DNA from: Nitrosopumilus sp.
GTDB lineage: Archaea > Thermoproteota > Nitrososphaeria > Nitrososphaerales > Nitrosopumilaceae
Length of the DNA stretch: 64,000 bases
Assembly (NCBI GenBank): GCA_965197525.1
Contig: OZ240211.1
Coordinates: 832,001 to 896,000, forward strand
Direction of reading: 5' to 3'
In this document: one piece after another, positions 6,768 through 9,207 of the stretch
Layout of the letters: every line of letters starts with the position of its first letter
Position numbering within the stretch: position 1 is the stretch's first letter
The notes under the pieces: generated by a model
The model's database searches: none
What the model was told of the DNA's origin: nothing
Seen by the model: the letters and a program-made list of their open reading frames with translations, nothing else
Position numbers and translations under genes: made by a program

Positions 6768-6810
6768 GTTGTTTTGACTATTCTCGTCAATTAAAAAGTA
6801 TCCAGCCCTT

Positions 6811-8157
6811 GGTTCTGTGTAATCTTCGGGTGTTTTTTATGTTATTCATACCAAAACTAAACATTGTTTCAACAACGTAAAGTAACACCTTGATGATTAC
6901 TTGACTTTGACATATCGACTATTCGGATTACCGGTGTACAGGGTTCCGACATCGTTGACTCAAAAGTATCAAACTTCGCTTCATTTATGCCATCTCTACT
7001 ATCCCTAAACCTAGGGGACAGTTTGCGTGATATATTCATGGCAGCAATTACATCTCTGTCCATGAACAATCCGCAATTATTGCACAACATTTTACGACTG
7101 TGTTGCATGTCCTCTTGGAGTTTCTTTCCGCATTTTGGACATTGCGTGCTTGTGCGTTTTGGGTCTACAAATTCGACTGGAGGTAGCCCGACCCACTGTG
7201 CTTTGTATTCTATCTGTCTTTGCAGTTCAAAGAATTGCCATCCGTTCAATCTGCGTCTGTATTTGTTACCTTGACTGTTCCCTTTCCTGTATAGTTTTCT
7301 AATTCCTTTCAGGTTTTCTAGAACAATAACTGCTTTTTCTTTGACTGCATTATCCACAATATCTTTGGATATTTTGTGGATGTATTGTTTTGTTCTGTTG
7401 GTCATTCTTTTCTGTCTCTCTTTCCAAAACTGATCTTTCTTTCTGCGATCATTTCTGCGGAATCCAGCTCTAGCATGTATTGTGTTCTCTTTGATTGAGA
7501 GCAGTTTGTTTGTCTTGTAGAATGTTACCTTTTCCTCATTTCCACAGGTGACGTTTCTAAGGTTCCGGTCTACTCCCACTGTCTTGGTACACTCTATTTG
7601 TTCTGTTTCTTTGGAAACACAGAGATTGATGTTGAGGGCAGTCAATGAAAATGAGCGTACTGTCAAGGCAGGATCAGACAGGATTTTTTGTGTGTGTTGG
7701 TTTAACAGGATGTTGATAGAATTTCTACTCTTGTATGGAATTGTCAACAGTGCACCATTGTGTTTTACTCCATAACAGTTTGTGATAAATGGTTTTTTTA
7801 CCGTTGGATACTTTACTTTGATGCCACGTTTCACGGATTGTTTTCTGTTAGCTAGTATACCTGCAGCTCTTGATATTGCATTGAGTTTGTATGATGATAA
7901 AATATCATAGTTTCTCAATTCGTGATAACACAGCATAGACAATCGCTTCATGTTATGGGTATCTTCTTTTAACCCTATCTTGATACAGCAGTTAACCATC
8001 TCTGTGAATGTGACCATCATACCCACGAGGTCTGAATTCGGTGTATATTTTTGTGCTATTGACTTTATCGCCCTCAACGGCTATATTGTGATTCAAGGAT
8101 ATTTAAGTGCAGATATACTGAGTCACAGTTATCAGCACCCGAAGATTACACAGAACC
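6811..8157 (-). mobile_element. 1347-bp non-autonomous TIR element (GGTTCTGT family) carrying an intact tnpB
   Basis: Perfect 22-bp TIR GGTTCTGTGTAATCTTCGGGTG (6811-6832 / 8136-8157); 8-bp TSD CAGCCCTT (6803-6810 / 8158-8165); removing it restores the mvk ending FKGLDTF*. Confidence 0.93.
6869..8077 (-). CDS. tnpB: TnpB RNA-guided endonuclease (IS200/IS605-type OrfB), 402 aa
   Basis: RuvC-I VGVDRN, RuvC-II VLENL, Zn finger TSTQCPKC...CNNC and RuvC-III DRDVIAAMNI; catalytic D/E/D present. Confidence 0.93.
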   Translation of the reverse strand: MRAIKSIAQKYTPNSDLVGMMVTFTEMVNCCIKIGLKEDTHNMKRLSMLCYHELRNYDILSSYKLNAISRAAGILANRKQSVKRGIKVKYPTVKKPFITNCYGVKHNGALLTIPYKSRNSINILLNQHTQKILSDPALTVRSFSLTALNINLCVSKETEQIECTKTVGVDRNLRNVTCGNEEKVTFYKTNKLLSIKENTIHARAGFRRNDRRKKDQFWKERQKRMTNRTKQYIHKISKDIVDNAVKEKAVIVLENLKGIRKLYRKGNSQGNKYRRRLNGWQFFELQRQIEYKAQWVGLPPVEFVDPKRTSTQCPKCGKKLQEDMQHSRKMLCNNCGLFMDRDVIAAMNISRKLSPRFRDSRDGINEAKFDTFESTMSEPCTPVIRIVDMSKSSNHQGVTLRC

Positions 8158-9207
8158 CAGCCCTTTAAAGTCAATATCAACTGAAAAACAGTTGTAACGA
8201 CCATCTTGAAATTGGTTTATGGTACGCTGCATATTGGAATGATCAGTCAAGGCAAAGACACATCCACCCCCTCCAGCACCGGTAAGTTTGGCGCCAAATG
8301 ATGTGGTCTGACCCACCCTTACCATGTCTCGTAGCGTGTCATTTGAGACGCCAATCATCTCAAGATATTCTTGGTTACGCCTGACTTGTTGACCCAGTTC
8401 TGATATATCATTACCTGTTTTTAACAACTGTAACACATCATGTACTAGTTTGGCCTCATCATCGCACAATCTAGAGAACAGCTCAGGGTTACTGTCTTTG
8501 AACTGACGTACATTTGCAACTATAGACTCTGTTGAATGCTGTAAATTTGAATTGGCAATTACCAGATTAAAAGTAGATTTGGGGGAGATACTTGCAAACC
8601 CATGTTCCTTATCATAGGTTATAATTCCCCCATAGGTGCACACTGTACAATCAGCACCCGATGTATTCTCAAATATCGTTCTCTCAGCTTGTATTGCCAG
8701 ATGTAAAATCTCTTCTCTGGATGCTTGTTTAAACAATCCAGAGATTGCAGCTGCCCCTGCTACACAGCATGCAGATGACGAGCCAAGACCAACACCTAGT
8801 GGAATTTCGGATTCTACTGTAATGCGTATTCCAGTGTTATTGTTGCTAGTACTGTCACGAGTATTGTTATTAGTGTTACCGTTAGTATTGTTGTTATCAT
8901 CACCGTCATTGATATTATTTTTATTATCATTATTATTTACATAGCCATTATTATCTTGATCATGCATCAACTTGTCTGCAAGATAATACAATGGTTTTAG
9001 TGGATAATCAATCTCAGATATAGGTGTATGTGGGGAAACGCATAAATTACCAACGTCAGAAACAATAGAGATTTTATTATCGTTGGTGTGCTCGGCAGTT
9101 ACATAAACTCTTCTATCAATTGCGCAAAGTATTGCTTGAATACCATACACTACAAAATGCTCTCCAAATAAAATTACTTTACCTGGTGCCGATGATTTAG
9201 ATTTCAA
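8146..9207 (-). CDS. mvk: Mevalonate kinase; C-terminus supplied by the inserted TIR; Asn-rich insertion
   Basis: APGKVILFGEH, P.GVGLGSSSA, SGAD and KLTGAGGGG GHMP motifs. Confidence 0.93.
   Translation of the reverse strand: MKSKSSAPGKVILFGEHFVVYGIQAILCAIDRRVYVTAEHTNDNKISIVSDVGNLCVSPHTPISEIDYPLKPLYYLADKLMHDQDNNGYVNNNDNKNNINDGDDNNNTNGNTNNNTRDSTSNNNTGIRITVESEIPLGVGLGSSSACCVAGAAAISGLFKQASREEILHLAIQAERTIFENTSGADCTVCTYGGIITYDKEHGFASISPKSTFNLVIANSNLQHSTESIVANVRQFKDSNPELFSRLCDDEAKLVHDVLQLLKTGNDISELGQQVRRNQEYLEMIGVSNDTLRDMVRVGQTTSFGAKLTGAGGGGCVFALTDHSNMQRTINQFQDGRYNCFSVDIDFKGLGSV

Follow-up and report, generated by a model that had tools for sequence, protein, structure and literature searches.

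How does an intact tnpB gene come to lie, as the only gene, between terminal inverted repeats and a target-site duplication, and what moves such an element? The question is raised by a locus in a 64,000-nucleotide stretch of a Nitrosopumilus sp. genome (contig OZ240211.1, positions 832,001 to 896,000; hereafter the window). An earlier note, made from the letters of the window, had proposed that tnpB resides here in a non-autonomous element mobilised by a DDE transposase. The anatomy of this ~1.35-kb mobile element is confirmed, consisting of tnpB and a putative guide-RNA scaffold placed between IS6-like transposon ends ( Table 1 ). As an explanation of the whole, to which we assign a probability of roughly four in five, we propose a trans-mobilised, non-autonomous IS6-like element that carries an OMEGA module as its sole cargo, with a guide read out across the element end and a TTR target-adjacent motif.

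Table 1. Features of the tnpB element and its borders (positions in the window).
Feature	Position	Strand	Description
Predicted guide template	6791..6810	-	First ~20 nt beyond the tnpB-3' end; duplication (6803-6810) plus flank (6791-6802)
8-bp target-site duplication, tnpB-3' copy	6803..6810	.	CAGCCCTT on the + strand
Terminal inverted repeat, tnpB 3' end	6811..6832	.	GGTTCTGTGTAATCTTCGGGTG
Terminal hairpin of putative omegaRNA	6819..6900	-	Segment 3' of the scaffold predicted to pair with the inner half of the end repeat
tnpB	6869..8077	-	402 aa, intact, TTG start, RuvC D170/E254/D342, C4 zinc finger
Conserved structured RNA core (putative omegaRNA scaffold)	6908..7022	-	Four helices; covariation
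TATA-like box	8100..8107	-	TTAAATAT, ~22-29 nt upstream of the TTG start
Terminal inverted repeat, tnpB 5' end	8136..8157	.	Exact reverse complement of GGTTCTGTGTAATCTTCGGGTG
8-bp target-site duplication, tnpB-5' copy	8158..8165	.	CAGCCCTT
TTTA (TTR) motif	8166..8169	-	Immediately 5' of the duplication in tnpB orientation; candidate target-adjacent motif

Element anatomy and insertion site

The perfect 22-bp end repeats and the 8-bp duplication that had been read from the sequence before are confirmed: the repeats are identical at 22 of 22 positions (24 of 25 on extension), and both copies of the duplication abut them directly, without a gap. The single long ORF inside the element is tnpB, whose start codon lies 58 nt from the 5' end repeat (about 60 bp in the earlier estimate) and whose stop codon lies 36 nt from the 3' end repeat. 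These repeats are not a product of chance, since the exact 22-mer occurs 8 times genome-wide, versus 0 for the reversed control, and bounds further copies with different 8-bp duplications.

The uninterrupted site that had been predicted for relatives, with mvk ending in FKGLDTF, was recovered in 11 of 11 congeneric loci, these being the loci where both neighbouring genes were matched. In all of them the mvk product terminates in ...DF(K/E/R)GL(D/N)TF* and ipk starts ~29 nt downstream, with no insert. In the window the insertion changed the last three mvk codons from DTF to GSV, because the mvk ORF now extends 12 nt into the end repeat. The insertion also separates the mevalonate kinase gene (mvk) from the isopentenyl-phosphate kinase gene (ipk).

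The tnpB gene and its product

The predicted protein scores 123.7 bits against the NCBIfam guided_TnpB model (NF040570; cut-off 100) and matches the Pfam domain Cas12f1-like_TNB (PF07282) with an E-value of 2.7e-19 and 69.5 bits (cut-off 26.3). The catalytic D/E/D triad recognised at the outset (D170, E254 and D342) does not vary across the aligned relatives, the most distant of which share 28% identity; nor do D340 and the CxxC...CxxC zinc finger, with C313, C316 and C332. Its alignment to solved TnpB/Cas12f chains spans RuvC-II/III. Among three close tnpB copies dN/dS ranges from 0.17 to 0.46 and, as judged from these coding sequences, the gene is under purifying selection. The TATA-like box is the probable internal promoter of a near-leaderless tnpB mRNA, and most subfamilies carry such a box at an equal distance from the tnpB start.

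Distribution of the element family

In the host genome, a closed single contig that is 98.99% complete, a profile search returned 55 TNB-domain matches. There are ~33 full-length tnpB copies, sharing 80-100% amino acid identity, and ~10 deletion derivatives, nearly all of them bounded by GGTTCTGT ends. Pairing of element ends by tip-anchored searches recovered ~50 end-bounded elements in this genome, 28 of which have perfect, copy-specific 8-bp duplications; the strict form of the tip search misses Asgard loci, where left tips are degenerate. Homology between copies reaches the tips of the end repeats and then stops. Nine full-length tnpB copies lack matching duplications, and inspection of the table by eye showed no reciprocal or inverted partners for the mismatched duplications of the copy at genome positions 1567235-1568566 and of the other copies in this set. 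Deletion by recombination or an intramolecular event would be our guess as to their origin. One case of a reciprocal swap of duplications, between two copies (L044 and L046), was seen in a related MAG. The swap and the nine copies lacking matching duplications are at most indirect hints of copy-in cointegrate transposition.

Outside the host genome, TnpBs with 38-86% identity are bordered by GGTTCTG-type ends and 8-bp duplications in Nitrosopumilus, Nitrosotenuis, soil Thaumarchaeota and Bathyarchaeia, and inner-end repeats occur in Asgard loci. On this sequence evidence the family is large and spread over several archaeal phyla. A tnpB-less precursor MITE with these inner sequences was not found, and the short derivatives retain the 3' end of tnpB. 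One family member without tnpB, 851 bp long, has TTA on one side.

An IS6-like transposase partner

Searches of the closed host genome for the IS605 Y1 transposase (PF01797) and the IS607 serine recombinase (PF00239) gave 0 matches each, and the named control genomes were positive. An IS6-like DDE transposase is represented in the same genome by seven paralogues, of which one is a pseudogene and ~5 are intact. An intact transposase-bearing element of 1970 bp (genome positions 746475-748444), with an 8-bp duplication of its own, has the outer 18 of the 22 bp of its end repeat identical to those of the tnpB element. Of the intact transposase elements it has the closest end, with only these 18 of 22 bases matching, and it is a candidate for the autonomous partner that the earlier note had proposed to look for. 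The 378-aa ORF of this element matches Pfam DDE_Tnp_IS240 at 42.1 bits (gathering score 27) and carries an N-terminal zinc-binding extension. Its best NCBIfam match is transpos_IS6, with 102.8 against a cut-off of 125, and IS1 comes second with 61 bits. The element ends show the 8-bp duplication, short inverted ends, GG tip and cTGT motif (GG...TCTGT) by which IS6/IS26 elements are recognised. The suggestion of IS1 or IS1595 as the partner family thus gives way to an IS6-like assignment, based on the DDE_Tnp_IS240 domain, the tips and the duplication length. The partner is best termed 'IS6-like' and not a member of IS6, because both the 1970-bp element and the 378-aa transposase exceed the IS6 size range.

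Among intact transposase genes, those with the most similar ends lie at genome positions 746963-748096 and 2002343-2003476. As for transposase-associated loci, the exact 22-bp end is found only next to a decayed transposase remnant and within a mosaic region at 917-924 kb of the genome, where a search for the distal ends of the outward-facing exact end repeats (918986-919007 and 920321-920342) gave only a degenerate left end at 917372, and where a right end for the transposase of 37% identity at 922604 was searched for and not found. The IS6-like transposase family is present in 106 of the 251 genomes of the order. No transposase was found within 3 kb of tnpB in any of 89 loci, apart from one fragment (in L054), so that mobilisation in trans is the best reading.

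Two other accounts of the mobility of the element have to be weighed at this point. According to the first, tnpB would belong to an ordinary IS1341-type (IS200/IS605) unit that keeps hairpin ends of its own and is nested in an older short MITE, the inverted ends and the duplication being those of the MITE; a hairpin lying just inside the 3' end does loosely resemble the IS605 right-end hairpin. However, this hairpin has the end repeat itself as one arm, the ORF is merely 36 and 58 nt from the end repeats, and homology among copies ends at the end-repeat tips and not inside them. A bare MITE with the same inner sequences was not found, the short relatives being internal deletions that keep the 3' part of tnpB; the mvk-ipk site is both empty and MITE-free in the 11 relatives, and Y1 and serine transposases gave no match in the host genome. 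This account, which the earlier note had itself named as the one that would overturn its proposal, is largely refuted and highly improbable.

According to the second, TnpB itself, alone or with its RNA, would mobilise the element and the IS6-like transposase would be irrelevant, as might be suspected from the excess of tnpB elements (~33) over intact transposase genes (~5) in the host genome and from transposases never being adjacent to tnpB. We consider this very unlikely. Transposase-bearing elements, both here and in many other genomes, have the same end-repeat tips and an 8-bp duplication as well. TnpB and Cas12 nucleases cleave ~15-21 bp from their motif, and a cut at that distance gives no duplication abutting the motif. 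Also, TnpB is well established as an RNA-guided nuclease, and transposition does not require it (PMC13565253). Mobilisation by a DDE enzyme acting in trans is, by comparison, supported by the boundaries that ~33 copies and their derivatives share, the copy-specific duplications, the transposase element with identical outer 18 bp, the precise empty site and the failure to find Y1 or serine transposases or a tnpB-less MITE.

A putative guide RNA that includes the transposon end

The structured RNA core overlaps tnpB codons ~352-390, that is, the 3' end of the gene. Of its 26 predicted pairs, 15 show compensatory changes on both sides; 98.2% of cells are paired, versus 26-38% when the partners are slid as a control, and the covariation score was reached by 0 of 500 shuffles. 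Folded as a single sequence, the 3' 230 nt score only slightly better than shuffled versions (z = -1.66), the case for an RNA structure resting on covariation and not on this fold. Searched against Rfam at the E-value threshold, the element matched no family.

Downstream of the core, the predicted terminal hairpin leaves ...ACAGAACC single-stranded at the tip. This design recurs in most subfamilies, where the end repeats differ in sequence and the partner segments match them. The stretch from scaffold to element tip measures 36-102 nt and varies between subfamilies, so that the start of the guide is not pinned down. The geometry of the one-sided TTR motif, together with the position of the scaffold, suggests that the guide template comprises the duplication and the adjoining flank. 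A fixed internal guide right after the scaffold appears less likely than such a read-out guide, because it would leave the TTR motif unexplained.

A one-sided motif beside the target duplication

The TTTA motif in the window falls in the mvk codons for D-F-K. Across 43 sites of the host genome, TTR stands immediately 5' of the tnpB-proximal duplication in 29 (14 being without a strict TTR), compared with a genome frequency of 0.044 (p~1e-29), with T at -2 in 39 sites and a purine at -1 in 40. The mirror motif was found in 6 of the 43. TTR also occurs in 19 of 23 elements of other archaeal genomes, and in none of 10 transposase-bearing elements on either side (Fisher p = 3.5e-6). The flanks are AT-rich, with A enriched at -8 and -7, and the duplication bases that follow TTR are without AT bias. 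Such a one-sided motif fits a target-adjacent motif of TnpB. A role of TTR as tnpB promoter was also considered and judged unlikely, given the TATA-like boxes inside the elements.

Alternatively, TTR could reflect an asymmetric target preference of the mobilising transposase paralogue, or a promoter or BRE-TATA element that derives from the flank and is selected for expression, with the guide internal or absent and the element still an IS6-like one mobilised in trans. The AT-rich flanks with their A enrichment at -8 and -7, the variable spacing from scaffold to tip and the one-sided TTA of the 851-bp tnpB-less member would all agree with this, and the transposase-bearing controls are few (10) and belong to diverse paralogues, none of them a proven mobiliser. 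However, the motif is exact in position and of the form T/T/purine, with A and G at similar frequencies; relative to the strand that a read-out RNA would copy, it is on the protospacer-5' side, which is the geometry of Cas12 and TnpB, and it holds from Nitrosopumilus to Bathyarchaeia. Moreover, ends that are symmetric over 22 bp give a DDE enzyme little basis for orientation, the TATA-like boxes sit within the elements, and the lack of AT bias in the duplication bases following TTR also speaks against the alternative. We regard it as unlikely, with a chance nonetheless large enough to be kept in mind, and favour the motif as one recognised by TnpB.

Proposed mechanism and significance

Under the favoured reading, an IS6-like DDE transposase encoded elsewhere would recognise the shared GGTTCTGT... 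ends of the tnpB element and insert it by an 8-bp staggered cut, giving the target duplication, as its anatomy suggests. The RNA would run from the structured core inside tnpB through the hairpin, one arm of which is the inner half of the 3' end repeat, to the tip ...ACAGAACC, beyond which, on the sequence statistics, it would read into the duplication and flank as the guide. Since TTR precedes the guide-matching sequence in the uninserted allele (TTTA|AAGGGCTGGATAC...), TnpB could cut empty sites; at the occupied site ...GAACC stands before that sequence instead, and it would be protected there.

In its accepted role, TnpB cuts the scarless donor site that an IS605 or IS607 element has vacated, which leads to the element being copied back. 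Bacterial IS6/IS26 elements, in contrast, form cointegrates by a copy-in route and do not leave the donor, and this rationale is thus not directly transferable to them. We tentatively suggest, as an idea that may well prove wrong, that in this archaeal clade the OMEGA module has become adapted to a probably non-excising DDE transposon, with the duplication and flank as guide, the motif just outside, and the transposase-binding end also forming one arm of the guide RNA. The one-sided TTR enrichment, which transposase-only relatives lack, would then mean that the cutting of empty alleles by TnpB decides which insertions persist or spread, as in homing or gene drive without prior excision, or else TnpB would bias the choice of target.

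In contrast to the accepted setting, an intact TnpB/guide-RNA module is found here in duplication-making elements presumably moved by an IS6-like enzyme. If TTR is TnpB's own recognition motif, these elements constitute a natural test of OMEGA modules as excision-independent drive or retention devices, and would also illustrate in what way a target duplication can be spanned by the definition of a guide, a question otherwise posed only for eukaryotic Fanzors. From a practical standpoint, they are a source of dozens of archaeal TnpBs that are compact (~400 aa) and for which a TTR motif is predicted and the scaffold defined. As to annotation, such tnpB elements should not be filed under IS200/IS605.

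Comparison with known systems

With the IS1341 group of IS200/IS605 the element has in common its size (~1.3 kb), tnpB as sole gene and a scaffold overlapping the 3' end of the gene. IS200/IS605 elements have neither inverted ends nor duplications, and their Y1 transposase inserts them 3' of a fixed tetra- or pentanucleotide (PMC13565253); all three features fail here, given the 22-bp inverted ends, the 8-bp duplication and the 0 matches to PF01797. The inverted ends and duplication likewise set it apart from IS607, as do the 0 matches to PF00239 in the host genome.

Resembling IS6/IS26 (Varani et al. 2021, PMC7986276; Harmer & Hall 2019, PMC6807381), the system shows an 8-bp duplication, GG tips with cTGT and an IS240-type DDE domain, as well as copies without matching duplications, which are expected from intramolecular events or recombination. 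Classical members measure 700-890 bp and encode transposases of 213-254 aa (PMC7986276), unlike the autonomous element described here (~2 kb, 378 aa), and the dominant derivative here carries tnpB; the IS6/IS26 family as catalogued includes only a single member with a passenger gene and two MITEs (PMC7986276; PMC6807381).

Like Fanzor genes in eukaryotic DNA transposons with inverted ends and target duplications (Bao & Jurka 2013, PMC3627910; Saito/Jiang 2023, PMC10530073), this is a TnpB-family nuclease carried as cargo of DDE elements, with the duplication or flank beside the putative guide region. It differs from them in being archaeal and strictly non-autonomous, with an IS6-like and probably replicative partner, and the comparison implies no ancestry in either direction.

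The closest precedent is that of Altae-Tran et al. 2023 (PNAS, PMC10691335), whose main text presents six branches of DDE-associated TnpBs (DDE-1 to DDE-6) that have inverted terminal repeats, names IS630 for DDE-6, and infers that solo TnpBs move in trans, with ends like those of transposase-bearing elements. As described there, TnpB lies between inverted repeats with the tnpB 3' end near the element end, and the ends of the present element do recur on transposase-bearing elements. Unlike the DDE-associated TnpBs of that text, a transposase stands beside tnpB in 0 of 89 loci here, and a census based on gene neighbourhood could score the clade as solo. A motif abutting the duplication and a hairpin formed with the end repeat are not described in the main text of that paper. 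A 2026 review lists ISL2, IS630 and IS1031 as TnpB-associated DDE families, IS6 being absent (PMC13565253), and a literature search covering the main text of PMC10691335 found no paper linking TnpB to the IS6 family. DDE-mobilised TnpB with inverted ends is already published in principle; the IS6-like carrier and the one-sided landing-site motif are, as far as this search goes, additions to it.

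Anatomy of the element and its insertion site

Perfect 22-bp ends, an 8-bp duplication and a sole ORF encoding TnpB with a D/E/D triad, as reported in the earlier note, are borne out at positions 6803-8165. The ORF matches guided_TnpB (NCBIfam, 123.7 bits, cut-off 100) and Pfam Cas12f1-like_TNB (2.7e-19), Cas12f2 being the second-best NCBIfam match, far under its cut-off. The protein can be aligned to solved TnpB/Cas12f chains, and its D170, E254, D342 and four zinc-finger cysteines show no variation among aligned relatives down to 28% identity.

Coordinates of the features found in the window
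Feature	Position	Strand	Length	Remarks
Duplication CAGCCCTT	6803-6810 and 8158-8165			directly adjoining both end repeats
End repeat GGTTCTGTGTAATCTTCGGGTG	6811-6832; 8136-8157			second copy exact reverse complement
tnpB ORF	6869-8077	minus	402 aa	TTG start; single long ORF between end repeats
Conserved scaffold core	6908-7022	minus		covariation alignment
mvk	8146-9207	minus		Asn/Asp-rich low-complexity insert, ~40 residues (...NNGYVNNNDNKNNINDGDDNNNTNGNTNNNTRDSTSNNNT...); last three codons from transposon end
GGTTCTGT-family internal-deletion derivative	20600-21018		419 bp	tnpB 3' end and scaffold region alone left
GGTTCTGT-family internal-deletion derivative	38887-39264		378 bp	tnpB 3' end and scaffold region alone left; duplication CTACAAAT, TTA just before
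Second TnpB family, two copies	42687-44323 and 47513-49149		~1637 bp	95-98% identical
GGTTCTGT-family member without tnpB	51991-52841		851 bp	30-bp perfect ends, duplication TATTACTG, small coiled-coil ORFs

The source genome is closed (2.21 Mb, 39.6% G+C; window G000:C1:832001-896000). An empty site in relatives, with mevalonate kinase (mvk) ending in FKGLDTF, had been proposed as a check, and a clean one was recovered in all 11 congeneric loci where mvk and the isopentenyl-phosphate kinase gene (ipk) both matched: mvk ends in ...DF(K/E/R)GL(D/N)TF* and ipk starts ~29 nt further on, without insert. Joining the element's two flanks over one duplication copy yields exactly the relatives' mvk-ipk sequence, indicating insertion of the element within the final codons of mvk. 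The terminal DTF has become GSV, because the ORF now continues into the end repeat, and the insertion has left mvk and ipk 1.35 kb apart.

A tnpB family without IS605 or IS607 transposases

The exact 22-mer end occurs eight times in the genome (reversed control, 0). It bounds two further copies of 1332 bp, ~95% identical to that of the window, one with the duplication TTTTTGGA and the other with none; elsewhere it is found only in a mosaic at genome 917-924 kb. A divergent copy of 1442 bp encodes a 438-aa TnpB and has the duplication TTATTCTT. Genome-wide, the TnpB TNB domain has 55 matches, and 33 full-length ORFs are 80-100% identical to the window TnpB. Pairing all GGTTCTGT-type tips delimited ~50 bounded elements, with perfect 8-bp duplications in 28 and 7/8 matches in 2, which form several end-repeat subfamilies (e.g. 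GGTTCTGTGAAGTTATCGRGGGTTA, 1288 bp). About ten shorter elements (358-655 bp) have arisen by internal deletion and retain the 3' part of tnpB. Among the three closest tnpB copies dN/dS is 0.17-0.46.

An IS1341 unit nested inside a MITE fails as an explanation: the ORF and the end repeats leave no space for one, homology extends as far as the end-repeat tips but no further, a bare MITE was not found, and relatives have clean empty sites. Moreover, the genome is without IS605 or IS607 transposases, since profile searches for the IS200/IS605 Y1 transposase and for the serine recombinase returned no genome matches, both profiles being positive in named control genomes.

In L044 and L046, two loci of the Nitrosopumilus MAG OZ245003.1, two copies of a 1291-bp subfamily have reciprocally exchanged duplications (TTATGTTA / TAGAAACT). 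Such a swap marks recombination between inverted copies, in this case with inversion of ~125 kb, and recombination of this kind is one route to copies without matching duplications.

The window also holds an unrelated second family of TnpB transposons, encoding a 522-aa protein with OrfB_IS605 and TNB domains. Its inverted ends are imperfect (GGGAATTACATACTTGGATTAC / GGGAATTATATACCTAGGTTAC), the 8-bp duplications are AATCAATT and AATTCAAT, and its tnpB stops 5 nt short of the element tip. Such ends recur elsewhere in the genome around a MITE of 386 bp, an element of 2.9 kb and a span of 18.5 kb.

An IS6-like transposase as probable partner

Searching the genome for matching ends, as the earlier note had advised for finding a DDE partner, recovered a 1970-bp transposase element (genome 746475-748444), which shares the outer 18 bp of its ends with the window element and has its own duplication, CTATTGTG. 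Its 378-aa ORF, with a zinc-binding segment at the N-terminus, matches Pfam DDE_Tnp_IS240 (42.1 bits, gathering score 27), and its best NCBIfam match is transpos_IS6 (102.8 bits, under the cut-off of 125). Like the IS6 family as described by Varani et al. (PMC7986276), these elements have GG tips, a TCTGT motif and 8-bp duplications; unlike it, the element, at ~2 kb, and the length of the transposase lie beyond the family's range, and we therefore use the name "IS6-like". The window element is a non-autonomous IS6-like element with an OMEGA module (tnpB plus putative guide-RNA scaffold) as cargo. The proposal of non-autonomous, DDE-mediated mobilisation stands, whereas the IS1/IS1595 affiliation suggested with it gives way to an IS6-like one, given the DDE_Tnp_IS240 match, the tips and the 8-bp duplications.

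The genome has seven transposase paralogues (29-100% identity, one a pseudogene), some inside end-bounded elements of 3-5 kb with other cargo. Two such elements, at genome 583727-588872 (5.1 kb) and 699962-703151 (3.2 kb), encode paralogues 43% identical to the main transposase and carry extra cargo, without matching duplications. In the 917-924 kb mosaic, one exact end has as its neighbour the C-terminal remnant of a transposase, 81% identical to the intact copy; the exact end on the opposite side adjoins a methyltransferase gene and an IS6-like transposase of 37% identity. Locus L017 of this mosaic (genome 917000-922500) has two exact end repeats in back-to-back orientation around a 1.3-kb segment and, at its positions 4866-5225, an array of ~52 GGTTCTT heptamers resembling the end-repeat tip; the flanks of these repeats, followed on to genome 924000, also hold duplicated N6/N4 DNA methyltransferase-HNH genes (one broken) and a tRNA-like fragment.

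A one-sided TTR motif

In tnpB orientation, the upstream copy of the duplication is directly preceded by T (33/43), T (39/43) and purine (40/43). The complete TTR, whose frequency in the genome is 0.044, occurs at 29 of 43 elements (p~1e-29), and its mirror image on the opposite side at 6. In other genomes, including those of Bathyarchaeia and soil Thaumarchaeota, 19 of 23 elements with duplications have it; it was not seen in the second TnpB family of the window. A promoter role is unlikely, since TATA-like boxes lie within the elements, ~25-30 nt ahead of the start codon.

TTR could also stem from an asymmetric, so far unrecognised target preference of the transposase. It was absent on both sides of all ten transposase-bearing elements with perfect duplications (one from the source genome, nine from others; Fisher p = 3.5e-6 versus pooled tnpB elements), and we regard this origin as rather unlikely. 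From sequence we infer instead that TTR may be the target-adjacent motif of TnpB, a mechanistic reading to which we give modest odds. Were the RNA to read out over the 3' tip, TTR would stand where such a motif is expected; the uninserted allele has TTR-duplication-flank and the occupied allele ...GAACC-duplication-flank. Cas12f nucleases have T-rich motifs, and a TTR-type motif is in keeping with this.

A putative guide-RNA scaffold

Conservation between subfamilies is far higher in the 3' 150 nt of tnpB than in the remainder of the gene. Four helices emerge when 22 sequences from six genomes are aligned, with compensatory double changes in 15 of 26 pairs; 98.2% of cells are paired, compared with 26-38% after sliding the partners by 1-3 columns, and none of 500 shuffles reached the observed covariation. 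A hairpin loop, ...UAGGUUUA..., is almost invariant. Between core and tip, sequence and length (36-102 nt) vary from one subfamily to another. In most subfamilies the stretch that immediately follows the core forms a hairpin with the inner half of the subfamily's own 3' end repeat, and ...ACAGAACC stays unpaired. It therefore seems that the RNA incorporates the transposase-binding end, much as canonical omegaRNAs incorporate IS605 right ends. Speculatively, the GGUUU loop might base-pair with the terminal GAACC.

Distribution in archaea

The transposase family is present in 106 of 251 genomes sampled from the order. Among 41 relatives sampled, only 7 have homologues of the window TnpB (E <= 1e-20), close ones (63-67%) being confined to two congeners. 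A wider scan gave 80 TnpB loci in Nitrosopumilus, Nitrosotenuis, Nitrosotalea, Nitrososphaera, soil Thaumarchaeota, Bathyarchaeia and Asgard Atabeyarchaeia. A strict tip-anchored search found a GGTTCTG-type end pair at 40 of these, and at 23 the two duplication copies agree in at least 7 of their 8 bases; inner-end repeats of the Asgard loci were found with a looser end search. In 89 loci tnpB has no IS6-like transposase closer than 3 kb, one fragment apart. Such ends in multiple lineages, with no adjoining transposase, indicate an association that is old, wide and consistently in trans.

Comparison with known systems

The principle of TnpB in DDE elements with inverted ends is already published: Altae-Tran et al. 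2023 (PMC10691335) distinguish six branches of DDE-associated TnpBs that have inverted terminal repeats, together with solo TnpBs whose ends match and whose movement is presumably in trans. The partners given in a 2026 review are ISL2, IS630 and IS1031 (PMC13565253). No text naming IS6 as a partner was found in the literature searched, which included the main text of PMC10691335, and passenger-carrying IS6-type elements are rare in ISfinder (PMC7986276). Bacterial IS6/IS26 elements are copied without excision (PMC7986276). Possible gains from a nuclease acting on empty sites include drive into empty alleles following DNA exchange and retention among genome copies. The family is thus a useful test case for what an empty-site nuclease brings to an element type that, in bacterial IS6/IS26, does not excise.
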